A stretch of 64,000 nt of DNA from an uncultured Planctomycetales bacterium (GTDB taxonomy: Bacteria; Omnitrophota; Gorgyraeia; Zapsychrales; Fredricksoniimonadaceae): positions 1 to 64,000 of the forward strand of contig CAYTIW010000007.1 of NCBI GenBank assembly GCA_964438075.1, read 5' to 3'. Below the pieces are notes generated by a model, which saw only the letters and a program-made list of their open reading frames with translations, did no database searches and was not told where the DNA came from. This document shows, one piece after another, positions 1-24,960 of the stretch (its first letter is position 1; the number at the start of each line of letters is the position of its first letter). The translations under genes were made by a program, and so were the position numbers.

Positions 1-3000
1 GTGAACTGGGAAGACGTGGAGGCGTTGACGAAGACGGGAGTGAATTGGACGGATATAGAGGTTATAAGCAAGACGGGTATTAACTGGACAGATCTGGAAA
101 ATATTTCCAAAACAGGAATAAATTGGGCTGATTTGAATGCTTTGACTTTGGCAGGGATAAACTGGACCGATATTGAAACAATCTCCAAGACTGGTATCAA
201 TTGGACGGACCTCGAGGTCATGACGGTCGAAGGAGTTAATTGGAGCGATATAAACAAATTAAGTGATACCGGCATAAATTGGGCTGATATCGATGTGCTG
301 AGCAGAACCGGCATTAATTGGTTGGATATTGAATCCATGAGTAATAGAGGAATTAACTGGTACGATCTAAGTGCTTTGTCTACAACAGGTATTAATTGGC
401 TGGATATTGAAGTCATATCTGATACTGGAATTAATTGGATGGATGTGGCGTCTCTATCGAGTTCCGGAATAAATTGGAATGACATGGAGATGTTTTCCAA
501 TGCCGGGATCAATTGGTCCGATCTAGAGTCAATGACCCGGACAGGTGTGAATTGGACCGATCTGCAAATTATGAGCAACTCCGGGATCAACTGGAACGAT
601 TTAGACATAATGAGTACGGTGAGTGTTAACTGGACGGACATAGCTACGTTGTCATCGAGTGGAGTGAATTGGACGGATATCGAAGCGCTTTCCACGACCG
701 GCATAAATTGGTCCGACTTGAACGCCATGACTTTGGCTGGAGTTAATTGGGCAGATATTGAGGCGTTATCCCACACAGGTATCAATTGGTTAGACCTGGG
801 AACGATGACCTTGTCAGGTGTAAACTGGGATGACATCAATTCTATGACGTTAGCCGGGGTTAATTGGAGCGACATTGAAACGATCTCCCAAGCGGGTATT
901 AACTGGACTGATATAGAAACCTGGACCAAAGCGGGCATAAATTGGACAGATTTTGAAACTATGACCGTGTCTGGAATTAATTGGGATGATCTGCAGGAAG
1001 CCACAAATTCGGCGGTAAATTGGACTGATATCCAGGCACTCTCCTTGGCTGGTATCAATTGGATAGATTTTGGTAGTCTGTCTAATGCGGCTATTAACTG
1101 GACGGATTTGGAGGCAATGACGAAAGAAGGTATTAATTGGACGGATGTGAGTGCTTTATCGAATATAGGTATGAACTGGTCTGATCTGCAATCGATGACC
1201 ATCTCCGCTATTAATTGGGCAGATATGGTGACTATGAGTAGTGCTGAAATCAATTGGGAAGACCTGGCGGTCATGAGTTCGACTGGATTGAATTGGGAAG
1301 ATATCGGCATTTTAAGCGCCGCCGGAGTTAATTGGTCGGATCTGGATATCATGAGCAGAAGCGAGATCAACTGGTCTGATCTATCGGTGCTGACTTCTTC
1401 GGCTATCAATTGGATGGACATGGAAGTTCTATCGAAGAGCGGCTTGAACTGGGCCGATCTGGAATCTATGACGGTTGCAGGTGTGAATTGGACGGATATT
1501 GAAGCATTGAGTAAGACTGGGGTTAATTGGATTGATATCGAACGGCTATCAAGCAGTGACATAAATTGGGAGGATATCGAACGCATATCAACTTCATCCA
1601 TAAACTGGACAGATATAGAACAATTATCTGTTTCGGGAATCAATTGGGCCGATATGGCCACCCTGAGCGCATCAGAGATCAACTGGGCAGATATAGCCGC
1701 CATGTCTTCGGAAGCTGTGAATTGGCTGGATTTGGAAGTATTGAGTAAGACGGGTGTAAATTGGGCCGACTGGGAGGCGATGACCGTTGCTGGTGTAAAT
1801 TGGACGGATATGGAAGCAATATCCAAAGCGGCGATCAACTGGACCGATCTGGAGACCATGACCGTCACTGGGGTAAATTGGATGGATCTGGAATCAATTT
1901 CCAAGACGGGTATCAACTGGTCAGATCTAAACGCCATGACCGTCGCTGGGGTGAATTGGACGGACATGGAAGTTTTAAGCAAGTCGGCGGTAAATTGGAT
2001 GGATATGCAGACACTTTCATCAGCAGCCATTAACTGGGTTGATATGAGTGCGATGTCGTTAGCGGGAGTCAATTGGACAGATTTGGAAATTCTGTCAGAA
2101 CAAGGTGTGAATTGGATCGACATTGAAACACTTAGTACGGCAGGTATAAATTGGGAAGATATACAGTCGCTTACAACTTCCTCTATTAACTGGGGGGATA
2201 TTGAAGTTATAAGCAAGACGGGAGTTAATTGGGAAGATATATCCGCCTTGAGTTCAACTGGAGTTAACTGGACCGATCTGCAGTCAATGACGATGGCAGG
2301 TGTAAATTGGACGGATTTGGAGACCATTTCCAAGACGGAAATAAACTGGATGGATTTGTCTGCCATGACCCTGTCCGGGGTCAATTGGAACGATATTTCC
2401 GCTATGAGTGCGAACGGAGTTAACTGGACCGACTTGCAGTCGATGAGCATGGCGGGGGTCAATTGGACAGATATGGAGTACCTTACCACTGCAGAGGTCA
2501 ATTGGTCGGATCTGGGAACTTTGAGCAACGCTGGTATTAATTGGTTGGATATAGATTCTTTAAGCAATACCGGCATTAACTGGTCAGATATCAATATCAT
2601 GTCTGATGCCGGAGTTAATTGGTCGGACATTGCTTACCTTACCTCATCGAATGTGAACTGGACCGACCTCGAATCCCTAACCAAAACCTCTGTAAATTGG
2701 GCTGACCTCGAGTCCATCACCAAGGCAGCTATCAACTGGACCGACCTGGAATCCATGACCAAGGCTTCCGTCAACTGGACCGACCTCGCAGCATTAACAG
2801 TCACGGGTGTTAATTGGGCGGACATAGAAGCCATTTCAAAATCCGCGATCAACTGGACCGATCTACAGTCAATGACGATGGCCGGTGTAAATTGGACCGA
2901 TCTCGGCGCTATGACATTGACGGGAATTAATTGGGACGATATGCAGGTTCTGCATGAAAATGGGGTTAACTGGGACGACTTGGCGTTCATGAGCCGCGCT

Positions 3001-6000
3001 GATGTTAACTGGACCGATCTGAGCGTTCTGACCGATGCCGGGGTCAACTGGACAGACATGGAGACCTTGTCCCACAGTAATCTTAATTGGTCAGATCTGG
3101 AAGTGATGACCAACGCCGCAGTTAATTGGGCCGACTGGTCCTCTATCAGCACCTCGGCTATAAATTGGGGTGATATGAACACACTGACCTCATCAGCTAT
3201 TAATTGGTCCTCTCTGGGAGATATGACCATCAGCGGAATTAACTGGTCTAGTTTCTCTGACATGACCGTGAGCGGGATAAACTGGACCGACATCGGAACC
3301 ATGACCGACTCGGGTGTGAATTGGGAAGACATCGGCATTATGAGCTCTGCCGGAGTGAACTGGACAGATATGGAGAAAATGTCCCTGACAGGGATCAACT
3401 GGAGCGATATCCAGTCCATGAGCGATACGGGTATCAATTGGACCGACCTCGGTGCCATGGCCGCGGCAGGTGTTAATTGGTACGATATGGAATATATGAG
3501 CGATGCCGGTATTAACTGGATGGACATTGAAACCTTGACGAATAGAGGGATCAATTGGGTTGATATCGAATCTTTATCACTAGCCGGTATCAACTGGTCG
3601 GATATTGGTACTATGAGCAGTTCTGGTGTCAACTGGACGGATCTGCAGACTTTAACTGAGACAGGTGTTAACTGGGATGACCTGCAGTCTCTGACTTTTG
3701 CGGGAGTGAATTGGAGCGATCTCGGCTCCTTAAGTACCTCTAGTGTAAATTGGGCTGACCTGGTTTCGATGACTCAAAATGGCGTTAACTGGACCGACTT
3801 GTCGGTGATGTCTGATGCCGGAGTCAATTGGTCCGATTTCTCTGTCTGGACGGCTGCCGGGGTCAACTGGGATGATTTCGCCGTATTGACAGATTCAGGC
3901 ATCAATTGGAACGATTTGGAAATGATGAGCGAATCATCATTGAACTGGGCCGATCTGGCGTCTATGACCCTCAATGGTGTGAATTGGGCTGATCTCTCCA
4001 CATTGAGCGAAGCGGGCGTTAATTGGACCGACCTGTCTGTAATGAACTCTATGGGTGTAAATTGGGCTGACCTGAATGCTATGACAACTGCGTCGGTAAA
4101 TTGGGAAAGTTTGGAAGTGTTGACCAAGACCGATATCAATTGGGATGACCTGCAGACTATGACTGTTTCAGGAGTTAATTGGATGGACCTTGCGACAATG
4201 TCCGATGCCGGTGTGAACTGGATCGATATAGAGTCCATGAGTAAGGCTGATGTTAATTGGACCGGCATCGAATATCTATCCCAGGCAGGCGTGAATTGGG
4301 ATGATCTCTCAGTATTGAGTGACTCAAGTGTGAACTGGATGGATATGGAATACATGAGTAAAGCTGCGGTTAACTGGACCGACCTCATGCAGATGAGCGT
4401 TTCCGGAGTCAATTGGCTGGACCTGGGCGATATGACAGGGGCAGGGGTTAACTGGAGTGATATCAACGCCATGACTTCGGCCGGTGTGAATTGGACTGAA
4501 CTCCAATCCATGTCCGAGACCGGTGTGAATTGGGATGACCTGTCGGCCCTGACTTCGGCAGGTGTTAATTGGGTTGATCTGGAGGCGATGACAGTGTCCG
4601 GGGTGAACTGGACCGACCTCATGCAGATGAGCGTTTCCGGAGTCAATTGGCTGGATCTGGGCGATATGACAGGGGCGGATGTTAACTGGAGCGATATCAG
4701 TACTCTCTCTGCCGCCGGTATTAATTGGGACGACATCACTACCCTCAGTACGGTCGGGGTCAACTGGGCGGACCTTTCGACCATGTCTTCGGCGGGAGTG
4801 AACTGGTATGATGTTGGTTCTTTGTCTTTAGCTGGTGTCAATTGGGAATATTTCGAAGAGTTCTCTACGGCAGGTGTCAATTGGGATGACTTGTCCATAT
4901 TGAGTTCTGCAGGGGTCAACTGGACCGACCTCAATTCGATGACTTCGGCTTCGGTGAATTGGGAAGGTTTGGAGATATTGACCAAGACCGATATCAATTG
5001 GGATAATTTCGGGGCGATGACAACTGCCGGTACGAATTGGGATGCGTTCTCGTTCATGACCACGGCCGGCGTCAACTGGGATGAATTAGCTTCAATAACA
5101 TATACCGGTGTCAACTGGGATGACCTGCAATCGTTGACCGATGCTGGAATTAATTGGAATGACCTGCAGTATATGACCTCTACAGCTGTCAATTGGACCG
5201 GTCTGGAGGCGATTTCAAACACTACTGTGAACTGGGAAGATCTCGCCTCTATGACCTCGGCGGGAGTGAATTGGAATAGTCTGGAATTTATGTCCAGCGC
5301 CGGGATCAACTGGTCCGATTTCGAGTCCTTGACCAATAAGGGTATAAATTGGGATGACATCAGCAAAATGGCCAGTTCGACTATCAATTGGTCAGATTTC
5401 GAGAACCTGACCGAAGCCGGAATAAATTGGGATGGATTAAGTGTCATGTCAGAAACGGCTATCAATTGGGATGACCTTATGGCTTTGAGTGTATCGGGCA
5501 TCAATTGGCTCGATTTTGCATATTTGTCTCAAGCCGGGGTCAATTGGGAAGATATCGAGAGCATGACAGTAGCTGGTGCTAACTGGGAAGACCTGACGAT
5601 GATGGGCAGTGCGGGCATCAATTGGGATGCCCTGTCCTATATGTCCGCCGCCAATGTGAACTGGGATAGTTTGCAATCATTGTCCGTGGCTCAGATGAAC
5701 TGGCAGGGACTGAGTGACATCTCTCTCGCTGGTGTAAATTGGGAGAACATCGGCGATATGTCCAGAGATGGGGTCAATTGGCTTGACGTAGGGGCATTAT
5801 CCGAAGCGGGTATCAACTGGTCGGATTTCACTCAACTGACGAACACCGGTATCAACTGGGAAGATGTAAGGACTTTGAGCGAAACCGGTATTAATTGGAA
5901 CAGCATCGGCGAAATGGCAGAGGCGGGTATCAATTGGCAGGGCATCTACACCTTGAGCTATGCGGACATTAACTGGGAGGGGATCGGTGATATGTCCACC

Positions 6001-6380
6001 AGTGGTATTAATTGGCTGGATATCGGCCTGCTTTCCCAGGCCGGGGTCAACTGGGCTGAGATCGCAACGATGTCGTATGCGGACTTGAATTGGGATGAGA
6101 TAGCGGTAATGACGGATAGCGGGATCAACTGGTATAGCATAGGCGATATGACAGCTTCGCAGATCAACTGGAACGACGTGGCGGTTATTTTTGAATCCAG
6201 TATCAATTGGGATGATCTGAGTGTGATGTCTACCCGAGAGGTGAACTGGGCTGACGTCACTGTTATGACCACTTCCGATGTTAACTGGGGTGACGTGGGT
6301 GGTTTCTCCACGACCGGTGTCAATTGGGCAGATATGGCCAGGATGACCCATTCTAATATAGACTGGAGAGAAATGAGTTA
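1..6380 (+). repeat. Coding tandem repeat array, 39-bp period (13 codons), ~160 units, degenerate at synonymous positions
   Basis: Recurrent gg[n]aa[ct]tgg[n]c[n]gat motif every 39 nt. Units differ mostly at wobble positions while the G/N/W/D codons persist. Confidence 0.85.
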
Positions 6381-7083
6381 TTTCTCTGCCAATGCCAGGA
6401 CCTTGGTTTCGAATATCCAGGATATATTCGATAATATCGGAAGCGATCCCACAACGACTGACCAAACGACCTTGTTCGGCAAGATCAACCGGATGATCAC
6501 CGCTATCAACGATGTTGATATCAATACGATCGTCAGCATATTGGGAACAGCTGCGGATACCAAAGCTTCCAATACTATCTTTGGAGATCTTAATGCGGTC
6601 CAAGCGGCTATAGGTGATCCCAGCACCAGCAGCACTGTTTTCGAGCAAATGGATGTCATTCAGGACTTTGCCAAGAAAGGCAAGGACAGCGCCGATGCCG
6701 CTTTAGGGGTCACCAAGAATATAGAAAGCGATCTGGGGGTTTTTGGCCAGACCCCGACGACATATGAGAAACTCAGGCAGCTGGAGGATTATATCAAGAA
6801 TATTCAGCAGGCTGCGCTGGAATTGGGACCAAAACAGGAAGCCACGAGCGCGGTTGCCGATCAACTGGTAGAAATGGTACGTCAGATAATCAATGAACAG
6901 GCAAAGCAGGTCGGCTTGGAGACGACCGGGATGATGATAGAGAAACTCTCCAAACAGCAGTCCGAAGATGTCGAAAAGATCAACGAGAAGCTGGAAGAGA
7001 TCGATGCCAAGATCAGGGCTTTGCAGGAAGCTATGAAAGCCGATGACGTCGTTATCAAGACCTGGTTTGAAAGTGAGGAGTAA
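1..7083 (+). CDS. Giant tandem-repeat protein, 5' end outside the window (>=2360 aa visible). About 160 copies of a 13-aa unit, then a ~235-aa non-repetitive helical/coiled-coil C-terminal domain. Probable secreted or surface fibre/adhesin.
   Basis: Continuous frame-1 ORF from base 1 to TAA at 7081-7083. Strict 13-aa periodicity with invariant G-x-N-W and D at +2, visible by eye across ~6.3 kb. A downstream gene starts 4 nt after the stop with its own RBS. Confidence 0.85.
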   Translation: MNWEDVEALTKTGVNWTDIEVISKTGINWTDLENISKTGINWADLNALTLAGINWTDIETISKTGINWTDLEVMTVEGVNWSDINKLSDTGINWADIDVLSRTGINWLDIESMSNRGINWYDLSALSTTGINWLDIEVISDTGINWMDVASLSSSGINWNDMEMFSNAGINWSDLESMTRTGVNWTDLQIMSNSGINWNDLDIMSTVSVNWTDIATLSSSGVNWTDIEALSTTGINWSDLNAMTLAGVNWADIEALSHTGINWLDLGTMTLSGVNWDDINSMTLAGVNWSDIETISQAGINWTDIETWTKAGINWTDFETMTVSGINWDDLQEATNSAVNWTDIQALSLAGINWIDFGSLSNAAINWTDLEAMTKEGINWTDVSALSNIGMNWSDLQSMTISAINWADMVTMSSAEINWEDLAVMSSTGLNWEDIGILSAAGVNWSDLDIMSRSEINWSDLSVLTSSAINWMDMEVLSKSGLNWADLESMTVAGVNWTDIEALSKTGVNWIDIERLSSSDINWEDIERISTSSINWTDIEQLSVSGINWADMATLSASEINWADIAAMSSEAVNWLDLEVLSKTGVNWADWEAMTVAGVNWTDMEAISKAAINWTDLETMTVTGVNWMDLESISKTGINWSDLNAMTVAGVNWTDMEVLSKSAVNWMDMQTLSSAAINWVDMSAMSLAGVNWTDLEILSEQGVNWIDIETLSTAGINWEDIQSLTTSSINWGDIEVISKTGVNWEDISALSSTGVNWTDLQSMTMAGVNWTDLETISKTEINWMDLSAMTLSGVNWNDISAMSANGVNWTDLQSMSMAGVNWTDMEYLTTAEVNWSDLGTLSNAGINWLDIDSLSNTGINWSDINIMSDAGVNWSDIAYLTSSNVNWTDLESLTKTSVNWADLESITKAAINWTDLESMTKASVNWTDLAALTVTGVNWADIEAISKSAINWTDLQSMTMAGVNWTDLGAMTLTGINWDDMQVLHENGVNWDDLAFMSRADVNWTDLSVLTDAGVNWTDMETLSHSNLNWSDLEVMTNAAVNWADWSSISTSAINWGDMNTLTSSAINWSSLGDMTISGINWSSFSDMTVSGINWTDIGTMTDSGVNWEDIGIMSSAGVNWTDMEKMSLTGINWSDIQSMSDTGINWTDLGAMAAAGVNWYDMEYMSDAGINWMDIETLTNRGINWVDIESLSLAGINWSDIGTMSSSGVNWTDLQTLTETGVNWDDLQSLTFAGVNWSDLGSLSTSSVNWADLVSMTQNGVNWTDLSVMSDAGVNWSDFSVWTAAGVNWDDFAVLTDSGINWNDLEMMSESSLNWADLASMTLNGVNWADLSTLSEAGVNWTDLSVMNSMGVNWADLNAMTTASVNWESLEVLTKTDINWDDLQTMTVSGVNWMDLATMSDAGVNWIDIESMSKADVNWTGIEYLSQAGVNWDDLSVLSDSSVNWMDMEYMSKAAVNWTDLMQMSVSGVNWLDLGDMTGAGVNWSDINAMTSAGVNWTELQSMSETGVNWDDLSALTSAGVNWVDLEAMTVSGVNWTDLMQMSVSGVNWLDLGDMTGADVNWSDISTLSAAGINWDDITTLSTVGVNWADLSTMSSAGVNWYDVGSLSLAGVNWEYFEEFSTAGVNWDDLSILSSAGVNWTDLNSMTSASVNWEGLEILTKTDINWDNFGAMTTAGTNWDAFSFMTTAGVNWDELASITYTGVNWDDLQSLTDAGINWNDLQYMTSTAVNWTGLEAISNTTVNWEDLASMTSAGVNWNSLEFMSSAGINWSDFESLTNKGINWDDISKMASSTINWSDFENLTEAGINWDGLSVMSETAINWDDLMALSVSGINWLDFAYLSQAGVNWEDIESMTVAGANWEDLTMMGSAGINWDALSYMSAANVNWDSLQSLSVAQMNWQGLSDISLAGVNWENIGDMSRDGVNWLDVGALSEAGINWSDFTQLTNTGINWEDVRTLSETGINWNSIGEMAEAGINWQGIYTLSYADINWEGIGDMSTSGINWLDIGLLSQAGVNWAEIATMSYADLNWDEIAVMTDSGINWYSIGDMTASQINWNDVAVIFESSINWDDLSVMSTREVNWADVTVMTTSDVNWGDVGGFSTTGVNWADMARMTHSNIDWREMSYFSANARTLVSNIQDIFDNIGSDPTTTDQTTLFGKINRMITAINDVDINTIVSILGTAADTKASNTIFGDLNAVQAAIGDPSTSSTVFEQMDVIQDFAKKGKDSADAALGVTKNIESDLGVFGQTPTTYEKLRQLEDYIKNIQQAALELGPKQEATSAVADQLVEMVRQIINEQAKQVGLETTGMMIEKLSKQQSEDVEKINEKLEEIDAKIRALQEAMKADDVVIKTWFESEE

Positions 7084-7086
7084 GCA

Positions 7087-8433
7087 ATGGTGGGACAGGG
7101 GCGTGGTTTTAAATTCCCGGTCCGGCGGATCGTTGCTCTGTGGTCTTTTGTTCTGTATCTTTTTTTATCCCTGCCTGTCTTCTCGGATGTTGTGATCAAC
7201 GTGTTGGCTGTTAACGGTTCCGACAAGACGATCGAGAAAGATATCCAGTTCAGTCTTCCAGGGGAGATCACGCCCCCTGACCTGGTAGACGCGGCAGGGC
7301 TGAATTTGGACTATAATTTTAATGATTCTGGATACTATTTGCATGGCAAAGTATCTTTGCAGGCCAAGGAAACGAAGACCCTGCGCGTAAAGATACGCGA
7401 TGTTTGGCAATTATCCGACCAGGATGTAAATGCCATCAGGACCGAGATCGAGCAAGGCTTCAAGGAGATGGGCGCCGAACGTAACAAGGATAATGGAGAG
7501 CTATTAAGGAAAAAGCTGGTTGATAAACTGGAGTATATCTTAGCCGACCAAGCCCAGAACGCGGAGAACGTTGAAACACGCATCGATACTTATCGTAATC
7601 ATATCCAGACGCTGAATGAAATAAGGTCCCAAGCCAGGGCCATTGATTATTGGCGTTCGGATGCCAAGGAACCAGAGAACAATAAGACTGTTTATTACAA
7701 AGTTTTGGTTGAGAACCCCGGCGATAAGACCAGGAAGGTGAAGCAGCATCATTATCTGCCGAAAGAGGTCCTGCCGGAATATATTATCGACCGCAAAGGG
7801 TACGAGATACGTTTTGATGACAAAAAAAATCGGCCCTTTCTCTTTAAAGAAGAGGACATAGCTTCGAAGGAAAAAAAAGAAGTAAGTTTTGCTATCAGAG
7901 ACAAATGGTATATTCCTCAGAACGAAATAAGCTATGTACGTGAAAGGGCCAAATATGTAAATGATATCCTGGCCAAGTCCAAATATGTGGAGACCTCGCG
8001 GGGGCTTTTTAATAATATCACTAATTACCTGGACTTGATCGATATGCTGCAGAAGATCGAGCAGCCGGATATTCAGCAACATATCGGGGCTTATCGGCTT
8101 AATGAGGACCGGTTCGAGAAGGCCAAATCTGATCTGGATGATATAGAAAAGCTGCTTTCGCGCCACCGGGCCGAACTGGAGAAGAGCAAGGTCAAGAATG
8201 TCTTGCAGAAGATACAGTCCATGAAATCGCTGGCGCGTGTTTCTCAGGCGATTTTTGACAAGAAACCGACCGTGAATGCCGCTTGGAAGATAATCGGCAG
8301 CGTGCTGATCTTCTTAGGTATTTTTTCTATCATACATTTTGCGACTTGGTTTGCGCGTTCCTCGCGTGAAAGAAAACAGGAGCTTTTAAAAGAGGCAGAG
8401 GCTCAAGCGCATTCGCAGACCAAATCTGGATAA
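7087..8433 (+). CDS. Hypothetical bitopic membrane protein: N-terminal signal/TM helix, long charged coiled-coil-rich ectodomain, C-terminal TM helix
   Basis: ORF with GAGGAG RBS. Hydrophobic N-terminus (IVALWSFVLYLFLSLPVF) and C-terminal hydrophobic stretch (IIGSVLIFLGIFSIIHFATWF). No family recognised. Confidence 0.6.
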   Translation: MVGQGRGFKFPVRRIVALWSFVLYLFLSLPVFSDVVINVLAVNGSDKTIEKDIQFSLPGEITPPDLVDAAGLNLDYNFNDSGYYLHGKVSLQAKETKTLRVKIRDVWQLSDQDVNAIRTEIEQGFKEMGAERNKDNGELLRKKLVDKLEYILADQAQNAENVETRIDTYRNHIQTLNEIRSQARAIDYWRSDAKEPENNKTVYYKVLVENPGDKTRKVKQHHYLPKEVLPEYIIDRKGYEIRFDDKKNRPFLFKEEDIASKEKKEVSFAIRDKWYIPQNEISYVRERAKYVNDILAKSKYVETSRGLFNNITNYLDLIDMLQKIEQPDIQQHIGAYRLNEDRFEKAKSDLDDIEKLLSRHRAELEKSKVKNVLQKIQSMKSLARVSQAIFDKKPTVNAAWKIIGSVLIFLGIFSIIHFATWFARSSRERKQELLKEAEAQAHSQTKSG

Positions 8434-8448: not shown

Positions 8449-9915
8449 ATGAGCATAAAAGTACAGTATACGGAAGTCGGATACGTGAAAGCCATCCGCG
8501 GTTGTATCGTTATCGTGACCGGTTTTGGCAATTGCATTAACGGCCAGTTGATCCGGTTCGGATACGGCACTATCGGGATGGTTGTCGGGTTCACGGAGAC
8601 AGAGGCCCAGGTGCTGATCCTGAAAGAGACAGAAAAGATACGTACCGGCCAGGAGGCGCAAGCTTCGGTTGAACCTCTGGTCACACCCGTTGGAAAGAAT
8701 TTTATCGGCCGTATAGTTAATCCGCTAGCCGAGCCGTTGGATGGGCTGGGGCCGATCGTGCCGGATGATATTGCACCGATCTTTCCGGAATCGCCTCCCA
8801 TCCTGGACCGGCAGCCTTTGAACAAGACCTTGGAAACCGGGATCAAAGTCCTCGATGCCATGATCCCTATCGGGCGCGGTCAGCGGGAATTGATCCTCGG
8901 CGATAAAATGACCGGGAAGACCACCTTTGTTACGGATACGATCGTCAACCAGAAAGATGCCGGGGTAATATGTATTTATTGCGGTATCGGCAAGGCGCGT
9001 TCCAGCCTGGCAAAAGTGGTGCAGCTTTTCAAGGACCGCGGATGTTTCGATTACAGCATAATAGTTTCCGCCTCGGCATCCTCACCGCCTGGCCAGCAGT
9101 ATCTGGCCCCGTACGTGGCCTGTTCATTGGGGGAGTATTTCATGCGTCGCGGACAGGATGTTTTTATCGGATTCGACGATTTCACTAAGCATGCCTGGTC
9201 TTACCGGGAGATATCCTTACTATTGGGACGGCCGCCGGGGCGTGATTCTTATCCGGGAGACATATTTTATCTTCACTCCAAAATGATCGAACGCGCCTGT
9301 TTCCTTTCCAAGGAGAAAGGCGGAGGGTCCATGACTTTCTTCCCGATCGTTGAGATACTCGAAGGGGATCTTACCGCCTTCGTGCCCTCGAACCTGGTCT
9401 CCATGACAGACGGTCAGATATACCTCAGCGCCCAGCTTTTCGGTGAAGGGCAGAAACCGGCCCTGGATCTAGGCTTGTCCGTTTCCCGGGTTGGATCCAA
9501 GGTCCAATGGCCGGCTATCAAGGCGTTGTCCGGGCCTCTGCGTTTGGAGTACCTGCAGTACCGCGAATTGCTGCGGATTTCCAAGTTAAAGACCTCCGGT
9601 CAGTCTGAGGACATGAAGCAGAAATTGAAACGCGGTTCGATACTGACCGCCATCCTCCGGCAGTACAAGGATTCGCCGGTGTGCCAGGAAATGCAGGTGT
9701 TGATATTCTACGCCTTTAACAAGAAGTATCTGAACGATTTCACAATCGAGCAGGTCGACGCTTTTCAGAATAGCTGTCTGGAGTATACCAAGAACGTGAA
9801 GCCGGAATTTTTGACGCTATTGAGAGAGCGCCGCAAGTTGGACCCCGAGATCGAGAAATTGATGGATGAAGTTATAAATGGCCTGTCAGCGCAAGTAACT
9901 GGGAAGGGGCATTAA
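8449..9915 (+). CDS. atpA: F-type ATPase alpha subunit homolog
   Basis: Motifs GRGQRELILGDKMTGKTT (P-loop region), QYLAPY, SLLLGRPPGRDSYPGDIFYLHS. Collinear with bacterial AtpA over the full length. Confidence 0.85.
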   Translation: MSIKVQYTEVGYVKAIRGCIVIVTGFGNCINGQLIRFGYGTIGMVVGFTETEAQVLILKETEKIRTGQEAQASVEPLVTPVGKNFIGRIVNPLAEPLDGLGPIVPDDIAPIFPESPPILDRQPLNKTLETGIKVLDAMIPIGRGQRELILGDKMTGKTTFVTDTIVNQKDAGVICIYCGIGKARSSLAKVVQLFKDRGCFDYSIIVSASASSPPGQQYLAPYVACSLGEYFMRRGQDVFIGFDDFTKHAWSYREISLLLGRPPGRDSYPGDIFYLHSKMIERACFLSKEKGGGSMTFFPIVEILEGDLTAFVPSNLVSMTDGQIYLSAQLFGEGQKPALDLGLSVSRVGSKVQWPAIKALSGPLRLEYLQYRELLRISKLKTSGQSEDMKQKLKRGSILTAILRQYKDSPVCQEMQVLIFYAFNKKYLNDFTIEQVDAFQNSCLEYTKNVKPEFLTLLRERRKLDPEIEKLMDEVINGLSAQVTGKGH

Positions 9916-9978
9916 ATTTAGTTCTTATGCGGATGTGTTTTATCTGAGGCTGCTAGAGGTGAGGGAGAAAAGCGTTCT

Positions 9979-10248
9979 ATGCCACCATTATATAAGGGGA
10001 ATTTCCGTTGCGTGATCTTGAGCGCCAAGCGTTTGGTATTTGAGGCTGAGATAAACAGCCTTTTTATTACCGGTGATAGGGGAGAGTATGAGCTTTTGGC
10101 ATATCATTATCCTCTTATCGGTATCGTTAAAGGCGATATTGTGATCAATTGGGAAAAACGTTTGCCGGTAAGGGGCGGGGTGGTGCGGTTCTTCGCTAAT
10201 GAATGCAATGTCATGATCGAAGAAGCCCCAGCTCAGAAAACCAACTGA
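9979..10248 (+). CDS. atpC: F-type ATPase epsilon subunit homolog, beta-sandwich domain only (C-terminal helical hairpin absent)
   Basis: 89 aa. Pattern ...FITGDRGEYELLAYHYPLIGIVKGDIVIN... matches the epsilon N-terminal domain. The protein ends where the inhibitory helices would begin. Confidence 0.6.
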   Translation: MPPLYKGNFRCVILSAKRLVFEAEINSLFITGDRGEYELLAYHYPLIGIVKGDIVINWEKRLPVRGGVVRFFANECNVMIEEAPAQKTN

Positions 10249-10263
10249 GATTAGAGGGAGGCC

Positions 10264-10482
10264 ATGTTAGCTGAAACATTCATTATTATTACGGTAATGT
10301 TCATAGCTGTTATGGGGCCGAACGTCGTCATCGGTATGCTGGGCTATGCCGTGATCAAAGCGCTAAGTAGAAATCCCTCTGCCGCTTCCAAGATCTTCGG
10401 AGCGATGGTCATCATGTTGATATTCGTGGAGGCGATATCGATCGTGGCCATGATGGTGATTTTCCAACTTTTTGCGAGGTAA
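10264..10482 (+). CDS. atpE: F-type ATPase c subunit (proteolipid) homolog
   Basis: 72-aa two-helix hairpin. Polar loop RNPS (where E. coli has RQPD) and conserved carboxylate in helix 2 (LIFVEAISIV). GGGAGG RBS. Confidence 0.8.
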   Translation: MLAETFIIITVMFIAVMGPNVVIGMLGYAVIKALSRNPSAASKIFGAMVIMLIFVEAISIVAMMVIFQLFAR

Positions 10483-10485
10483 TCG

Positions 10486-10716
10486 ATGCAATTTCAGTAT
10501 TGGCCCGAAGGATTGATATTTATAGCCCTGTTCACGTTTATTATCGGGTTCCCCTGTGTCATGGTGGCTATATTGGGAACAAAACTTATTAATTATATAG
10601 GTCAGTATCCGTCCAAGTGTGCCAGGCGTCAGATGATAGCGTGTTTGCAGCTTTTTGTGATTGAGCTGATCTCGTTCGCGATCTTGGCGCTTTTTTATCA
10701 TATCTTTTCCGATTAA
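10486..10716 (+). CDS. Small 2-TM membrane protein between the c and b genes (AtpI/AtpR-like position; function unknown)
   Basis: 76 aa with two hydrophobic segments and Arg residues (ARRQMIA) next to the second helix. Starts 4 nt after the c-subunit stop. Far too short to be subunit a. Confidence 0.5.
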   Translation: MQFQYWPEGLIFIALFTFIIGFPCVMVAILGTKLINYIGQYPSKCARRQMIACLQLFVIELISFAILALFYHIFSD

Positions 10717-10730
10717 CAAAGGAGCCGGTC

Positions 10731-11486
10731 ATGACGTTCGAATTGATCGTTGGATTCTTCATACTAAATGCCCTTGTTACAGGGGCTATTATTCTGGCCC
10801 TGCACTGGGTCTTTGTTTCCAGTGTCGACGGAGCCAAACAAAGGCTGGAACGCGATGCCGAGTCTGCCCGGGCCCGCGAGGCGGAACTTAACCGCAAGAT
10901 CAGGCAGGCTGATGAAGAGCTAACGGCCCGGAAGAAAGAACTCGACCTTGTCGAACAGCGGATGAAAGGCCAGCTTGAGCAAGAGACCGAAAAACACCGG
11001 GAAGACCTGGTAAACAAGGCCCGTAGCGAGGCTGAAGAGATCATCGCCAAAGCACAGATAGCGGCTGAAGGTTTGCGCAAGGAGGCTGAGAAACAGATGG
11101 AGATAAAGATCATCGATTATTCGACCAGGATACTTAACGAGATCTTTTCTAGAAAGGCCAAAGCGGCTTTTGAAAAAGATCTGGTCGAAGAGTTCGTTTC
11201 CCAACTTAAAGAGATCGATATGTCCAAGATCAGCCTCGAGATCAAGAAGGCCGAAGTGGTTACCGCCTGCGGGATATCCGATGAGGACCTGAAACGTATT
11301 GCGGATATGGTCAGGGTAAAGACCGGCCGCGACATAGCTTTGGAGACCAAGGTGTCGGATGAGTTTGTGGCCGGGGTGGTGGTCAAGTTCGGCAGCCTGC
11401 ATTTGGACGGAAGCGTGCGGAACGCCATTCGGGAATCGGCGTTAGCCCTAAAAGGCGAAGTTGATAAGGGGAATTTACGAAAGTAA
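10731..11486 (+). CDS. atpFH: F-type ATPase b subunit fused to the delta (OSCP) C-terminal domain
   Basis: N-terminal TM helix, then an A/E/K/R-rich coiled coil (b-like), then a C-terminus ...VAGVVVKFGSLHLDGSVRNAIRESALAL matching the delta C-domain GG-I-R-GD-V-DGSV signature. 251 aa. Confidence 0.7.
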   Translation: MTFELIVGFFILNALVTGAIILALHWVFVSSVDGAKQRLERDAESARAREAELNRKIRQADEELTARKKELDLVEQRMKGQLEQETEKHREDLVNKARSEAEEIIAKAQIAAEGLRKEAEKQMEIKIIDYSTRILNEIFSRKAKAAFEKDLVEEFVSQLKEIDMSKISLEIKKAEVVTACGISDEDLKRIADMVRVKTGRDIALETKVSDEFVAGVVVKFGSLHLDGSVRNAIRESALALKGEVDKGNLRK

Positions 11487-11498
11487 AAAGAGCTCGTA

Positions 11499-13791
<2,293 letters not shown>

Positions 13792-13793: not shown

Positions 13794-15539
13794 ATGTTGA
13801 AGTCAGCGGTAAATAAAGCAGTATGCGAAGCGCTTCTCAAAAGTACTCTTTTGGACGAGCCTAACCTCCAGAAATATGCCGCTGAGGCCCATCGGCTGAA
13901 CCAGAAGATATCCTTTTACCTCGTCCAGCAAGGCATTTTGAAGACCCCCGCCGTTCTCCGGGCCTTGGCAGAACATTTCCACTTGGATATCGTCAATCTG
14001 AAGACGGTCAATGTCGACCGTATGGCCATCGACCGGGTCCCGGTCAAGTTCGCTTCCTATTACCGATTCATGCCCTTGGCCGTGGACGGGAACCGTTTGA
14101 CAGCTGCTGTTTCGGAACCGCTGGATATACATAATCAGGACGACATACGCGCGCATTTAGGCCTGGAACCGCGTTTTGTCCTGGCCTCGCCGTGGGATAT
14201 CGATGAAGCTCTGAAGCGTTATTACGGCCTGGCTTCCGAGACCATTGACCAGATATTGACCAAGGACCCGCAGAAACGGTCGGCCTTTTCCGAAGACCGT
14301 TCTTCCAAGATAGAGGATATCGAGAAGCAGAGCGAAGACCCGTCGGTCACTAAACTGGTCAATCAGATCATTTTGGAGGCCTACCAGAAGCGGGCTACGG
14401 ATATCCACATCGAACCCTACCGTAACCGGGTCCGTTTCCGCTATCGTATCGACGGGGTTCTGCTCGATGCCAATCTCCCTCCGGAAGCAAAGCATTTTCT
14501 CCTGGCCATAATATCGCGTATAAAGATCATGGCCAACCTGACCATCACCGAGAAGCGGCTTCCCCAGGACGGGAGCGCGGTGGTACGCGTGAAGGAACAG
14601 GCCCTGGACCTGCGCGTTTCAACCATCCCCACCCAGCACGGGGAGAGCATGGTCATACGACTTTTGCCGACCACTACCACGCTGCTGGACCTGGAGAAGC
14701 TAGGGTTTAATGCCGATAATGCCAGCAAGTTCAGGGAACTGATACGCCATCCGCATGGCGTTATTTTTGTTACGGGGCCTACCGGTAGCGGAAAGACCAC
14801 CACCTTGTACGCCTGCCTGAACGAGATCAACGACCCGACCCGCAAGATCATCACTATCGAGGACCCGATAGAGTATGAGATGGAGGGGATCACTCAGATA
14901 CAGATCAACTCCGGCATCGATTTCGGTTTCGCGACCGGCTTGCGCAGCATCCTGCGGCACGATCCGGACATCCTCATGGTGGGAGAAGTGCGGGACCGGG
15001 AGACGGCCGACATCGCTATTCGTACTGCCCTGACCGGCCATTTGGTGTTCTCCTCGCTGCACACTAATGATGCCGCAACCGGGGTGACACGCTTGGTTGA
15101 TATGGGGGTGGAACCTTATCTGGTGGCCTCGAGCGTGCAAGCTTTCATTGCCCAGCGTTTGGTGAGGGTCATATGCCCGCAGTGCAAAGAGGAGGACCGC
15201 GAGCCGCTGATGGAGATAAGGAAGGAGATAGCCAGGAGTTTAGGTTTCTCCTCGCTGGATGAAATAAAATTCTTCAAGGGCCGGGGCTGTGACCAATGCA
15301 ACAATACGGGTTATTATGGCCGTACGGCTATTTATGAAATATTGGAGATAACCGAAGCCATCCGCTCCGCGATCCTGGACAAGCCGAGGGCGGAAGAGAT
15401 AAAACGCATAGCCGTACACGGAGGGATGCGCACGCTGCGGCAGGACGGCTGGAAGAACGTTATAGCCGGTGTTACCACTCCGGCCGAGGTCTTGAACGTA
15501 ACGCTTAAGGAGACGGCTGGGGCATCCTCCGCGGTCTAG
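13794..15539 (+). CDS. gspE: Type II secretion / type IV pilus assembly ATPase (GspE/PilB family)
   Basis: N-terminal GspE_N-like region, Walker A GPTGSGKTT, Asp-box, His-box, and a C-terminal tetracysteine CPQC...CDQC. The start codon is 2 nt after the atpD-like stop. Confidence 0.9.
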   Translation: MLKSAVNKAVCEALLKSTLLDEPNLQKYAAEAHRLNQKISFYLVQQGILKTPAVLRALAEHFHLDIVNLKTVNVDRMAIDRVPVKFASYYRFMPLAVDGNRLTAAVSEPLDIHNQDDIRAHLGLEPRFVLASPWDIDEALKRYYGLASETIDQILTKDPQKRSAFSEDRSSKIEDIEKQSEDPSVTKLVNQIILEAYQKRATDIHIEPYRNRVRFRYRIDGVLLDANLPPEAKHFLLAIISRIKIMANLTITEKRLPQDGSAVVRVKEQALDLRVSTIPTQHGESMVIRLLPTTTTLLDLEKLGFNADNASKFRELIRHPHGVIFVTGPTGSGKTTTLYACLNEINDPTRKIITIEDPIEYEMEGITQIQINSGIDFGFATGLRSILRHDPDILMVGEVRDRETADIAIRTALTGHLVFSSLHTNDAATGVTRLVDMGVEPYLVASSVQAFIAQRLVRVICPQCKEEDREPLMEIRKEIARSLGFSSLDEIKFFKGRGCDQCNNTGYYGRTAIYEILEITEAIRSAILDKPRAEEIKRIAVHGGMRTLRQDGWKNVIAGVTTPAEVLNVTLKETAGASSAV

Positions 15540-15634
15540 TGCCTTTTTGCCCATTTTTACTTCAGCCCCCTGTCCTGGTGTTTTGCATCGTTGGGATCGT
15601 TCGATGACTCTAAATAATGAAAGGGGCCGGTCCC

Positions 15635-16846
15635 ATGCCGGTTTTTGCCTATAAAGCCAAAAAAGACAATGCTGAGACGGTCCTGGGCGATATCGTGGCC
15701 CGGGATGCCAACGAGGCTATCGAGATGGTCAGCCGTCGCGGTCTCTTGCCGGTCGCCGTTGAAGAGAAGGAAGGAGAGGGTGCGGCATCTGTATTGGGAT
15801 TGTCTGCCGGAAATGTCCGTCGAAAAGACATCATGGTGTTCACGGGGCAGTTGGTGAGCTTGCTGAAGGCCGGGGTCCCTCTTCTGCAATCGATAGAACT
15901 GTTGTCAAGGAAGACACGCAACGCCAAACTAGCCTATGTTCTGTCCGATATCGCGCTGAACATACGCAACGGCAAAACTTTCTCCGCAGGACTGGAGGAT
16001 CATCCGGATATCTTTGAGCCCCTGTATACGGCTATGGCCCGGGCGGGTGAGGAAGGCGGGAGCATTCGGGAAATGCTGGCTGAGATGGCTGATTATTATC
16101 GCAAGCAGGAAGATATCGCCCTAAAGGTCCGCGGCGCGCTGACTTACCCGGCGGTCATGTTGGTAGCCGGTATCGGCACGGTCATTTTTGTGCTTACTTT
16201 CGTGCTGCCTAAGATCAAGGTGCTTTTCAAGGATATGCATACGGCGCTCCCCTTGCCAACGGTGATAGTACTCAAGTTGAGCGAGATGGTGCAGAATGGG
16301 TGGCCCGTGATCCTGGCTATTGCGGTCCTGGGCGCTTTATCATGGCAATCCCTCCGTCGCATGGCAGCTTTCCGGAGGGCCGTTGGCCAGGTCATTTTTG
16401 CCTTGCCATGGGTAAGGGAGTTTGCCTTGAAAATAGAGATGCAGAGGTTCACCAGGACCATGAGCTTCCTGCTGGAAGGCGGCATCCCTATATTGCGGGC
16501 TTTGGAGCTGGCCATCCCGACACTGTCAAATGAAACTTTGAAGGATGACCTGGGCAAGTGCAAAGATATGATAGCGGACGGCGCCACCTTTGGGGACACG
16601 CTAAGACGTTCCGTTCTCATACCTGATATAGTGCCGTCATTGGTAGCGGTAGGGGAAGAGGCCGGCGCGCTCGCACAATCACTCAGGGATATAGCGGAGA
16701 CTTACGAGCAGGAGATCGGCGAAAGCACCAAGGCCATGTCGACCCTGCTGGAACCGCTCCTGATTCTCCTGGTGGGATCGGTGATAGCCTTCATTGTTTT
16801 TGCTATGTTGATGCCTATATTTCAGATGGATATTTTCGCCCAATGA
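15635..16846 (+). CDS. gspF: Type II secretion inner-membrane platform protein (GspF/PilC family)
   Basis: Start MPVFAYKAKK... is typical of GspF. Two GspF-domain repeats with three TM segments. The ORF track extends 6 codons upstream, but an RBS favours 15635. Confidence 0.85.
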   Translation: MPVFAYKAKKDNAETVLGDIVARDANEAIEMVSRRGLLPVAVEEKEGEGAASVLGLSAGNVRRKDIMVFTGQLVSLLKAGVPLLQSIELLSRKTRNAKLAYVLSDIALNIRNGKTFSAGLEDHPDIFEPLYTAMARAGEEGGSIREMLAEMADYYRKQEDIALKVRGALTYPAVMLVAGIGTVIFVLTFVLPKIKVLFKDMHTALPLPTVIVLKLSEMVQNGWPVILAIAVLGALSWQSLRRMAAFRRAVGQVIFALPWVREFALKIEMQRFTRTMSFLLEGGIPILRALELAIPTLSNETLKDDLGKCKDMIADGATFGDTLRRSVLIPDIVPSLVAVGEEAGALAQSLRDIAETYEQEIGESTKAMSTLLEPLLILLVGSVIAFIVFAMLMPIFQMDIFAQ

Positions 16847-17685
16847 CCCTGACATGGAAGTTCATAGCGCCGGTGGCCGTGTTATGGTTAGTTATGGTTA
16901 TGGGCCCCGCGCGGGCCGTTGAAGAGCCATTTCGTGAACTTAAGGGCGATCATTTTATTGTCAAATATTTGCTTGAGGATGAACGCAGCCGGGCTGTCCA
17001 GATATTAACCCGCGCGGAGTTATATTATAAGAGGGTGGCTGAAAGTATCGGTTATAACCGTTACCAGGAATACTGGACTTGGGAACGGCGCGTGACCGTA
17101 GTTCTTTATCCTGACCAACTGTCCTACGCCAAGTTCACCGGACAGCCACAGTGGTCCAAGGGGTATGCCAGCCGGGATTCCAAACTGTTCAGGACCAAGG
17201 TGATCGTTTCCTATGATGGCCAGCCTGAATTCCTGGAGGAGATATTGCCGCATGAGATCGCACATTTGATCCTGTGGGATTTTCTCGGATTTACCCGTAA
17301 GGTGCCGATATGGTTCGAGGAGGGCTTGGCCCAGCGGGAGGAGGATGGCAAGAGAGCCGTTGTGCAGCAGGCCATGAAGGAAGTTGTCATTTCCGGGAAC
17401 GATATCCCTTTTGCCACCTTCCATGGACTGGATGTGGGCAGGATCACGGACCCGGTGCAGGTTTCATTGTTCTATGCCCAAAGTCTCTCGGTGGTGGAGT
17501 TCATGATCGGTAAATACGGCCGTGATGCTTTCAGGAACTTTTGTCGTGAGATACGGGAAGGCCGGGCGTTCGAGGAGGCTTTGCCCCGCGCCTACCCGGC
17601 CATCTTTCGGACGGTGGATGATCTGGGATCGAAATGGAAGAATTATATGCAGAATGAAGTTGTTTCTTCAGGAGGCGGGCTATGA
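16843..17685 (+). CDS. Secreted gluzincin-like metallopeptidase (HExxH ... E), family uncertain (Peptidase_MA-like)
   Basis: Signal peptide. HEIAHLILWDF followed about 18 aa later by WFEEGLAQ, giving thermolysin-like zinc ligand spacing. Overlaps the gspF stop (ATGA). Confidence 0.5.
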   Translation: MTLTWKFIAPVAVLWLVMVMGPARAVEEPFRELKGDHFIVKYLLEDERSRAVQILTRAELYYKRVAESIGYNRYQEYWTWERRVTVVLYPDQLSYAKFTGQPQWSKGYASRDSKLFRTKVIVSYDGQPEFLEEILPHEIAHLILWDFLGFTRKVPIWFEEGLAQREEDGKRAVVQQAMKEVVISGNDIPFATFHGLDVGRITDPVQVSLFYAQSLSVVEFMIGKYGRDAFRNFCREIREGRAFEEALPRAYPAIFRTVDDLGSKWKNYMQNEVVSSGGGL

Positions 17686-18089
17686 ATAACAGCAGAGGGT
17701 TCACGCTGGCAGAGATAATGCTGGTGGTCATCATAATAGGGGCCTTGGCGGCCATGGTCGTCCCCCGCTTGTCCGGCCGGTCCGAACAGGCCCGTATCGC
17801 CGTAGCCAAGGCGGATATAAAGACCAACATCCCTACCGCTTTAAAAATGTACGAGTTGGACAACGGAATGTATCCAACTACAGAGCAGGGTCTCCAGGCT
17901 CTCCGGGAAAAACCATCGTCCGCCCCGGCCCCCAGGTATTGGCACGGGCCTTATTTGGAACAGGATCCGGTGGACCCTTGGGGTAATCCTTACTTTTACG
18001 AATCACCGGGGACCCATCGCTCAGATTACGACTTATATTCCAAAGGCAAGGACCAGAATTCTCCCGATGGTTACATCACCAACTGGTAA
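17682..18089 (+). CDS. gspG: Major pseudopilin GspG (T2SS)
   Basis: Prepilin leader plus GFTLAEIMLVVIIIG. Conserved GspG core LDNGMYPTTEQGLQAL...GPYL...DPWGNPY.Y.SPG...YDL.S.G.D...DI.NW. AGGAGG RBS. Confidence 0.9.
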   Translation: MNNSRGFTLAEIMLVVIIIGALAAMVVPRLSGRSEQARIAVAKADIKTNIPTALKMYELDNGMYPTTEQGLQALREKPSSAPAPRYWHGPYLEQDPVDPWGNPYFYESPGTHRSDYDLYSKGKDQNSPDGYITNW

Positions 18090-19148: not shown

Positions 19149-19149
19149 T

Positions 19150-20178: not shown

Positions 20179-20244
20179 ATCAGTTTTGGGTTGATTGACG
20201 GAAAAAGCTTAGTCTATAATGTAGCCATCAAATGCGGAGAAAAC

Positions 20245-21744: not shown

Positions 21745-21755
21745 GGAGTCCCGCC

Positions 21756-24949: not shown

Positions 24950-24960
24950 GAAGAAATGAT

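Follow-up and report, generated by a model that had tools for sequence, protein, structure and literature searches.

The repeat gene and its array

We analysed the first 64,000 nucleotides of contig CAYTIW010000007.1 (assembly GCA_964438075.1, deposited as an uncultured Planctomycetales bacterium and placed in the Omnitrophota by GTDB), hereafter called the window. Its first open reading frame (ORF; nt 1-7083, + strand) comprises 2,360 codons in a single frame, is open at base 1 and encodes an array of 13-residue units followed by a non-repeat C-terminal domain. Downstream lie a gene for a 448-amino-acid (aa) membrane protein, an F-type ATPase-like operon and genes resembling those of type II secretion systems (T2SS) and type IV pili (Table 1), and the remaining window carries ordinary chromosomal genes. 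What is new at this locus is an undescribed repeat family tied to a known, mechanistically unexplained locus. The most likely structure of the array appears to be a new 13-residue variant of the α/β coiled coil.

Table 1. Features of the window, with coordinates, strands and the basis of each assignment.
Feature	Coordinates (nt)	Strand	Basis or remark
13-residue-unit array	1-6393	+	NW dipeptides at a constant spacing of 13 residues
Partial unit at array start	1-36	+	
162 full units	37-6354	+	
Degenerate last unit	6355-6393	+	sequence NIDWREMSYFSAN
Six-unit local duplication, 234-bp period	4368-4793	+	contains the 50-bp exact repeat
Non-repeat C-terminal domain	6394-7047	+	family alignment; AlphaFold2
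Extreme C-terminus VVIKTWFESEE and stop codon	7048-7083	+	conserved; family consensus VVVKTWFESE
448-aa bitopic membrane protein	7087-8433	+	N-terminal signal/transmembrane segment, C-terminal transmembrane helix, short basic tail
F-type ATPase-like operon, non-respiratory	8449-13791	+	Pfam; gene order
ATPase α	8449-9915	+	
ATPase ε	9979-10248	+	
ATPase c	10264-10482	+	
76-aa two-transmembrane protein	10486-10716	+	
ATPase b/δ (fusion)	10731-11486	+	
ATPase γ	11499-12356	+	
ATPase β	12367-13791	+	
Type II secretion/type IV pilus-like genes	13794-23232	+	Pfam
GspE with MshEN domain	13794-15539	+	
GspF	15617-16846	+	
Peptidase MA (Peptidase_MA_2, zinc metallopeptidase-like)	16843-17685	+	
GspG	17682-18070	+	
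153-aa ORF, no Pfam match	18067-18528	+	pseudopilin by position only
GspJ-like pseudopilin	18525-19148	+	
GspK	19123-20178	+	
PilM/PilN fusion	20191-21744	+	
GspM/PilO	21756-22391	+	
TPR protein	22303-23232	+	
PMT_2-type GT-C	23288-24949		
GT2	24961-25767		
STT3-type oligosaccharyltransferase	26087-28618	-	
Two ORFs without Pfam match, low-GC region	54126-54689, 54708-55490	-	adjoin HAD hydrolase and QueH

The ORF contains 163 NW dipeptides, and all 162 gaps between them measure exactly 13 residues, without a single indel. This count bears out the first-pass annotation of the same DNA, which had described about 160 tandem 13-residue repeats; the array end that it placed at nt 6380 is moved here to about nt 6393. 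In the window the units follow the consensus G-[VI]-N-W-x-D-[LIM]-x-x-[ML]-[ST]-x-[AST]. The G-x-N-W-x-D core had been called invariant, which is right for Asn at position 3 (162/163) and Trp at position 4 (163/163) and too strong for Gly at position 1 (69%) and Asp at position 6 (85%). Position 2 is Val or Ile in 94% of units and position 11 Ser or Thr in 96%, while position 7 is occupied by L, I, M, F or V and position 10 by M, L or I. Ser, Thr, Gly and Asp are abundant, about 38% of positions are conserved hydrophobic, and the 13-mer has no conserved His or Lys. A degenerate DNA pattern spanning two units matched the window 83 times, on the + strand only and always within nt 4-6333, and found no match in 100 shuffles of the window. 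About 39% of the window's 13-mers read N-W-[ST], an N-glycosylation sequon of the eukaryotic and archaeal type on the invariant Asn; Ser and Thr are frequent at other variable positions too, so that this share does not by itself indicate enrichment.

Age of the array and selection on it

Units of the window's array share on average 54% of their nucleotides and 44% of their amino acids, independently of their distance along the array. All four Gly codons are used, and the Asn codons AAT/AAC and the Asp codons GAT/GAC occur 99/63 and 89/50 times, respectively. When two units carry the same residue, the chance that they also carry the same codon equals the expectation from codon usage (0.29 vs 0.28 for Gly, 0.52 vs 0.52 for Asn), and synonymous sites between units are therefore saturated. 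The heavy synonymous divergence reported in the first-pass annotation is thus real, but the Gly, Asn, Trp and Asp codons are not "fixed" as it had stated: the codons for G, N and D vary as codon usage predicts, and the residues alone are constrained.

Over this region, six independent assemblies of the species agree at 99.3-99.9% identity, without indels. The longest between-strain comparison yielded 37 synonymous and 17 non-synonymous differences, none of them at unit positions 2, 3, 4 or 6, which is a synonymous excess; between units, where a comparison in the manner of dN/dS had been suggested earlier, synonymous divergence is saturated. The array is ancient and under purifying selection, as had been proposed in place of a recent slippage expansion, and the gene is real. 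Truncation of the gene at the window edge and the breaking of contigs within the array could have pointed to a pseudogene, an assembly artefact or recent slippage. This reading is effectively refuted by a frame uninterrupted over 7 kb, by the agreement of the six indel-free assemblies, by the combined signature of selection in strains and units, and by orthologues in 13 genomes, one of them a complete chromosome. The longest exact repeat in the visible array measures 50 bp (copies at 4372 and 4606) and falls within the six-unit local duplication, which is relatively recent compared with the rest of the array.

Relation to known families

Searches of the repeat against Pfam, NCBIfam and PDB sequences gave no genuine match, in agreement with the first-pass annotation, which had recognised no known family and had named a match in a hidden Markov model search as one possible refutation. 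The motif is not printed in any paper of the searchable literature, and no description of the repeat is given in three papers that deal with giant genes and the ATPase/pilus locus in Omnitrophota. Pentapeptide, hexapeptide, RTX, LRR and TPR repeats, which had been set aside by inspection, all stayed below their Pfam cut-offs: Pentapeptide_4 scored 22 bits against a cut-off of 38, and hexapeptide, RTX, LRR, TPR, dockerin and EF-hand families in Pfam were not listed even at E≤10. The only Pfam score above its cut-off came from Ntox33 (PF15533; 48.9 bits for the whole protein, cut-off 28.4), an α+β domain of about 65 aa with the motifs [DN]xHxxK and DxxxD and an H-K-D triad (PMC3482391, PMC9424270). 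We rejected this match: the score is a sum of partial matches confined to profile positions 2-38 (37/65), no stretch is significant alone, and the defining H-K-D motifs are absent from a unit that lacks conserved His and Lys. Matches to 2-Hacid_dh, HTH_11, BNR_6 and Lysostaphin_N were partial, below threshold for each stretch, or driven by periodicity, and Lysostaphin_N is presumably itself a region of 13-aa repeats. The top match of the PDB profile search, a tandem Myc-tag construct, was an artefact.

A 16-unit profile retrieved, among 1.84 billion, 522 cluster representatives at E≤1e-3, 34 of them at E≤1e-30, and the canonical two-unit DNA pattern had no match in 2.9 million viral contigs. 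All named homologues of the repeat protein belong to Candidatus Omnitrophota. Through the neighbouring gene for the 448-aa protein we found 13 genome loci, labelled Omnitrophota or Omnitrophus (10), "uncultured Planctomycetales" (two) and "bacterium" (one); the closest, from a Ca. Omnitrophus sp., shares 66% identity. Judged by these searches, the repeat protein appears to represent an undescribed family restricted to the Omnitrophota.

Family architecture and true length

The 5′ end of the window's gene was not recovered: all 15 contigs carrying the neighbouring gene end inside the array, assemblies made independently for the species stop at window nt 1 or nt 19, and long contigs of relatives likewise break within the array. 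The Logan runs SRR30464874 and ERR14964774 contain this species as well. The array is a systematic assembly breakpoint. The independent short-read assemblies of this species (including locus L004, nt 1) all stop within ~20 nt of where the window begins, which hints at a stretch of nearly identical units immediately before it, unlike the well-diverged visible array.

The protein is larger than the visible 2,360 aa, as the first-pass annotation had concluded from the frame open at base 1, and the orthologous product on the complete 3.36-Mb Omnitrophota chromosome OY759724.1, encoded at about 3.349-3.370 Mb, measures 7,092 aa, with 234 uninterrupted 13-mers in its last 3,318 aa, the portion read. 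Another species carries at least 235 units on a 1.63-Mb contig. Complete members include proteins of 868 aa with about 30 units and an N-terminal signal peptide (P0002), of 1,292 aa with 42 units and a LamG head, whose called N-terminus has no signal peptide (P0001), and of 2,809 aa with about 75 units and a signal peptide (P0043), the last with a head of ~1,540 aa that combines a β-helix-like segment with Rha78A-type Ig domains/FN3. Signal peptides were judged by eye in P0002, P0004, P0043 and P0044. The order common to the family is a signal peptide, a variable head (Ig-like, LamG, or ~1,540-aa β-helix/FN3), the 13-mer array with 28 to at least 235 units, and a conserved C-terminal domain; by homology, the window's protein would also begin with a signal peptide and a head.

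The C-terminal part of the window's protein (229 aa, window aa 2132-2360, ending in VVIKTWFESEE) is conserved in the family; in it, long helices come after two or three copies of the motif D-T-x4-T-[LIV]-F-G-x-[IL]. AlphaFold2 predicted it to be helical, with a predicted local distance difference test score (pLDDT) of 70-85 over window aa ~2135-2280. A Foldseek comparison of the model of this domain plus 16 units with the PDB returned no match at E≤1e-3, only generic helical bundles. In some relatives, such as L020 (JACKFL010000006.1) and P0043, the arrays alternate between the unit types NWxD[IL]GVLSDA and NWx[SG]IN[DE]LSxA, in which the acidic residue shifts from position 6 to position 9; in L020 this produces a super-period of 26 residues, with unit identities of 0.54 and 0.64 at odd and even lags, respectively. 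The window's array shows no such alternation of two types.

Each unit probably holds a short helix

The first-pass annotation had pictured a solenoid with a regular ladder of Trp and had suggested predicting the structure of 10-20 repeats. We ran AlphaFold2 on single chains of 16 units (15-row in-register alignment) and of the last 16 units plus the C-terminal domain. Confidence in the repeats was low, with a pLDDT of 43 and a predicted template modelling score (pTM) of 0.23 in the first run and a pLDDT of 30-44 in the second, where the C-terminal helices reached 70-85, and secondary structure alone is usable. According to DSSP, every unit in both models consists of an 8-10-residue helix, from about W4 to S11, and a short linker, and neither model contains strands. 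Covariation within the unit, computed from 1,681 units of 25 proteins, was led by the pairs 6-9, 8-12, 5-8, 9-12, 5-9 and 9-13, which are of the i+3/i+4 spacing expected for a helix; 6-9 is the strongest pair, and the adjacent pair 8-9 ranks third. Mutual information between units (lags 1-4) mainly reflected the composition of lineages and was uninformative on contacts. We take the segment [IV]2-N3-W4-x-D6-[ILM]7 to be a classic helix N-cap/capping-box motif. Together, the predicted secondary structure, the covariation and the capping box point to a short helix in each unit, and the earlier idea of a fibre would hold for a coiled-coil-type rod rather than for a solenoid.

A β-layer reading of the 13-mer

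Six residues (MATKDD) inserted into a trimeric heptad coiled coil give rise to a "β-layer" (Hartmann et al. 2016 eLife, PMC4786415). According to the rules derived there, β1 and β2 are hydrophobic or small, with A/V preferred at β2, and β3 is an N-cap (D/N/T/S), after which come e-f-g, with usually K/R at e and D/E/Q at g, and then a; hexads follow a g or c position, periods add 2 or 6 residues to the heptads, DAVNYAQL and DAVNGSQM of SadA are among the natural neck motifs, and all known cases are homotrimers (PMC4786415). We assign about an even chance to the reading that the array forms a homotrimeric α/β coiled-coil rod in which each 13-mer is a heptad plus a six-residue β-layer element. 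The corresponding register is β1 = G1, β2 = [IV]2, β3 = N3, e = W4, f = x5, g = D6, a = 7, b = 8, c = 9, d = 10, e = 11, f = 12 and g = 13, with 13 = 7 + 6.

Across the same 1,681 units, β3 is Asn in 100%, as the N-cap rule prescribes, and β2 is aliphatic (I 68%, V 30%, I/V 98%) and mostly larger than A/V, while β1 (G 85%) is small and not hydrophobic. At g, D (70%) and E (2%) bring the strict fit to D/E/Q to ~72%; N (14%) and S (9%) are chemically akin but not covered by the rule, D/N/S/E together reach 95%, and units lacking D at position 6 tend to have an acidic residue at position 9. The core positions a and d are aliphatic or aromatic in ~99% and L/M/I/F in 97%, respectively, and the most variable positions, 5, 8, 9 and 12, coincide with the exposed sites f, b, c and f of this register. 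The invariant Trp at e departs from the K/R rule and has its sole precedent in the Tyr of the short SadA neck AVNYAQL. Both SadA necks match G[VI]NWxD[LI] position by position, with the aromatic residue at e included in DAVNYAQL, and Ala at β1 occurs in the "AVN" necks of trimeric autotransporters.

Exceptions to the 13-residue spacing in arrays of the core family support the modular reading of heptad plus six. The commonest is a spacing of 6, found in 13 homologues (GVNWxE-T[IV]NWDNLAELTTA), which corresponds to the deletion of one heptad; a spacing of 26 marks two units in which W is replaced by F, or N by D/R/Q/K, and a spacing of 17 equals 13+4, a stutter. The failure of AlphaFold2 to fold the monomer (pLDDT 30-45 despite a clean in-register alignment) fits an obligate oligomer, and an obligate trimer would explain it.

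In such a rod, G1-[IV]2-N3 would supply β1-β3 and W4-x5-D6 the e-f-g positions of the β-layer element, and the heptad would place I/L/M of position 7 at a and L/M of position 10 at d. N3 would cap the following helix and D6 would hydrogen-bond back to N3 as a capping box, so that at least 163 iterations in three parallel chains could build a rigid rod with a ring of three Trp per layer. Helices rise by ~1.5 Å per residue. From helix geometry we estimate that a unit adds roughly 2 nm and that the visible 163 units would span ~0.3 µm, whereas a compact solenoid would bring the visible array to about 0.1 µm. The trimeric state and the rod geometry are thus presumed from sequence features.

The likeness to α/β coiled coils (PMC4786415) extends over the β1-β2-β3-e-f-g-a register with its Asn N-cap at β3, the acidic or amide g, the aliphatic β2 and the hydrophobic a and d. 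With a period of 7+6, the window's array would iterate the arrangement of the engineered T6 construct, in which the MATKDD hexad lies between heptads, and the conserved hexad-only unit of the family resembles the layers at hexad spacing in 2C3F, a tail fibre of a Streptococcus prophage. Thermosinus Tcar0761, a natural continuous case, has a period of 9 and 14 nonads, compared with a period of 13 and at least 163 units here, and at least 234 in a relative. The window's unit, as a putative trimer, differs by its Trp at e and Gly at β1, and it shows no detectable sequence homology to these proteins. The necks of SadA and YadA, (A/G)-V-N-(Y/W)-x-(Q/D)-(L/I), are almost identical to the window motif. 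Six distant proteins (P0022-P0026, P0035) carry irregular [GD][IV]NW[DSA] motifs at a spacing of 10-12, e.g. GINWDYYAAGGEGVNWDDITELDLT, and end in a different C-terminus; the β-layer-like element may recur in them within another fibre architecture.

Several observations weigh against the trimeric rod. The fold is a prediction, and neither AlphaFold2 model is confident in the repeats. Trp stands at e in place of the usual K/R, β1 is Gly and not hydrophobic, and β2 is mostly Ile, which has more bulk than the A/V favoured there; taken alone, I/L at a and L/M at d do not single out a trimer, and the N-cap with its amphipathic pattern would also suit a monomeric helix-turn solenoid. The N-terminus of the window's protein lies outside the sequence, its signal peptide and head being deduced from homologues, and the passage of a sub-micron trimeric rod through a T2SS secretin poses a difficulty.

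Alternative folds

The main rival is a monomeric α-solenoid or helix-turn superhelix, in which each 13-mer would form a capped two-turn helix and a five-residue turn, and units stacked via V2, W4, L7 and L10 would make a rod of one chain that likewise serves as a stalk. AlphaFold2 indeed placed a helix and a loop in each unit, the capping box, hydrophobic staple and i+3/i+4 covariation require no trimer, and the two-unit periodicity of L020 (0.54/0.64) could reflect a super-repeat of helix hairpins. Regular solenoids, however, normally fold well in AlphaFold2, and here the pLDDT was 30-45 and the pTM 0.23; moreover, the PDB searches gave no single-chain precedent for an 8-10-residue helix with a 3-5-residue linker, and the conserved spacing of 6, which removes exactly seven residues, is left unexplained. 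We consider this fold possible but markedly less probable than the trimeric rod.

Other folds fare worse. Low AlphaFold2 confidence and the richness of the units in S, T, G and D would suit a flexible or elastic, partly disordered tether acting as an entropic spring. Disordered linkers, however, tolerate indels and drift in composition, and with some 38% conserved hydrophobic positions, an invariant unit length (zero indels in more than 1,600 units) and core positions under purifying selection, such a tether is improbable. We rate still lower a narrow β-solenoid in which each turn is one 13-residue coil and the Trp residues form a ladder: although constant unit length and an invariant Trp fit any solenoid, AlphaFold2 predicted no strands, covariation is of the i+3/i+4 and not the i+2 type, hydrophobic residues in a/d spacing after an N-x-x-D capping box are characteristic of helices, and no pentapeptide, hexapeptide, RTX or other β-solenoid family of Pfam exceeded its threshold. 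The helix evidence therefore does not support the β-solenoid. Very unlikely, too, is an origin of the array from half of a dockerin or EF-hand, with the units binding calcium. V-N-x-x-D-L-x-x-L bears a likeness to the end of an EF loop with its exiting helix in the dockerin consensus, and dockerin-type giant proteins have been reported in Omnitrophota; against this, the DxDxDG half that opens the 12-residue Ca2+ loop is missing, neither Dockerin_1 nor EF-hand matched even at E≤10, and each unit has a single conserved acidic residue.

Comparison with known surface proteins

Trimeric autotransporter adhesins share with the window family, whose fibre is predicted, the long surface fibre, the logic of head, stalk and anchor, and a variable stalk length. 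They possess a C-terminal YadA-type β-barrel and Hep_Hag head repeats, and the window family has neither; its head lies N-terminally behind a Sec signal peptide, its C-terminus is predicted to be helical, and its gene stands in a T2SS/F1-ATPase cluster. We accordingly rejected an assignment to type Vc: no YadA-type barrel, Hep_Hag or YadA stalk was matched in Pfam, and the C-terminal 229 aa are predicted to be helical. Fibrillar adhesins with Ig-like or Rib/G5-E stalks likewise combine a signal peptide, a variable head, variable stalk repeats and a conserved anchoring end, but their stalk units are domains of 70-100 aa, in contrast to a 13-residue unit that probably needs three chains to fold.

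The Archaeovorins and Dockerin-type giants measure 30,000-147,000 aa, with many transmembrane segments and SecA-DEAD, HEAT, TPR, dockerin or TSP3 domains (West-Roberts et al. 2023; 10.64898/2026.06.07.730766). The Omnitrophota giants and the window family share the phylum, very long ORFs near T2SS-like genes, assembly breaks at repeats and a proposed contact with hosts or prey. The window family differs in its size of 0.9-7 kaa, its single 13-residue repeat, a stalk free of Pfam domains and its position upstream of the ATPase operon. We did not retain a giant protein of these types as a candidate: the largest complete relative has 7,092 aa, and none of their domains occurs in the visible part or in the complete homologues.

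Genomic neighbourhood

The gene order is the same at 13/13 loci: repeat gene, ~450-aa membrane protein, α, ε, c, 76-aa protein, b/δ, γ, β, GspE and GspF, with two short loci ending before the ATPase genes. In the related loci peptidase MA often comes next after GspF. Upstream of the repeat gene, the two loci that reach further carry GspC, secretin and TPR genes; the repeat gene therefore sits inside the cluster.

The 448-aa membrane protein matches no Pfam or NCBIfam family, and the name "DUF861" given to its relatives in some NCBI records goes back to a weak Cupin_3 match. Its 105 homologues, the named ones all from Omnitrophota, are always encoded between the fibre gene and ATPase α. Among the loci, identity amounts to 66-83% for α and 69-88% for β, compared with 26-60% for the C-terminal domain of the repeat protein and 34-66% for the membrane protein; these last two evolve faster than the ATPase subunits.

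Omnitrophota carry non-respiratory "symbiotic" F-ATPase/type IVa pilus loci, with the operon within 10 kb of pilus/T2SS genes, for which host attachment or motility by analogy with Mycoplasma mobile was proposed (Seymour et al. 2023, PMC10066038). The window has the same set, an α/β/γ/ε/c/b-δ operon abutting GspE/F and pseudopilins, with ATPase genes that end at nt 13791 and GspE beginning at nt 13794, and the loci of its relatives are from Omnitrophota. By gene content and position, its operon thus appears to match the "symbiotic" F-ATPase of Seymour et al. 2023, where neither the repeat protein nor the 448-aa membrane protein is mentioned. The operon contains no a subunit, and its order α, ε, c, 76-aa protein, b/δ, γ, β is unusual. 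At nt 1-165 of locus L008 lies a separate OSCP gene, which presumably belongs to the respiratory enzyme.

Proposed role

The repeat protein is likely to be a secreted, length-variable surface stalk or adhesin of the ATPase/T2SS-like machine. Its rod would act as a stalk of variable length joining a variable N-terminal binding or enzymatic head to the conserved C-terminal helical domain, which in turn would dock the fibre to an envelope machine made up of the 448-aa membrane protein, the F1-like ATPase and the T2SS-like apparatus. Within this scheme, the 448-aa protein is most plausibly the docking partner of the fibre's C-terminus, and the fibre would likely serve long-range attachment to host or prey cells. 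Its surface location, the identity of its distal end and its docking to the neighbouring protein are what we infer from gene content and homologues.

A more far-reaching proposal, which we regard as a long shot, makes the array the first natural 13-residue α/β coiled coil, with hundreds of units the longest known run of β-layers by a wide margin, and a fibre exceeding the cell width, and at the same time the mechanical output of the F1-like ATPase/T2SS-like machine. The fibre would then be held through its C-terminal domain by the 448-aa protein and be moved, rotated or reeled by ATP hydrolysis. Like the gliding machinery of Mycoplasma mobile (F1-like ATPase with the legs Gli349/Gli521), the locus pairs a very large surface protein with an F1-like motor. 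The repeats of Gli349/Gli521 are of ~100 aa and unrelated to the 13-mers, so that a fibre used as a "leg" or harpoon would be analogous but built from entirely different parts, and mechanical coupling in Omnitrophota is conjecture.

Omnitrophota are uncultured ultra-small bacteria thought to live on other cells, and their "symbiotic" ATPase/pilus locus has had no known output; candidates for its missing extracellular part are the conserved fibre of variable length and the bitopic membrane protein, whose genes immediately precede it. If the trimeric rod is correct, the family would build sub-micron natural rods from the β-layer, an element so far seen singly or in 14 nonads, and would provide a natural example of the 7+6 period, so far represented solely by one engineered insertion. 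A scaffold so regular and free of indels would be of interest to coiled-coil theory and fibre design. Because assemblies break at these genes, their size and frequency are under-reported in short-read metagenome-assembled genomes.

Further features of the window and of related loci

Several Omnitrophota loci keep Peptidase_MA_2 between GspF and GspG, an unusual position for a protease in a T2SS/type IV pilus operon. In L008 and L022-L026, GspE has ~740 aa and combines MshEN with a C-terminal PilZ domain, giving two c-di-GMP-binding modules; GspE of the window has 581 aa and MshEN only. Genes for glycosylation follow directly after the window's T2SS-like cluster (nt 23288-28618). Two overlapping tandem genes of the aconitase family occupy nt 43308-47640, the first encoding 956 aa (Aconitase and Aconitase_C) and the second 493 aa (Aconitase only). 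Between nt 52000 and 56000 the G+C fraction falls to 0.395-0.396, compared with ~0.54 in neighbouring windows.

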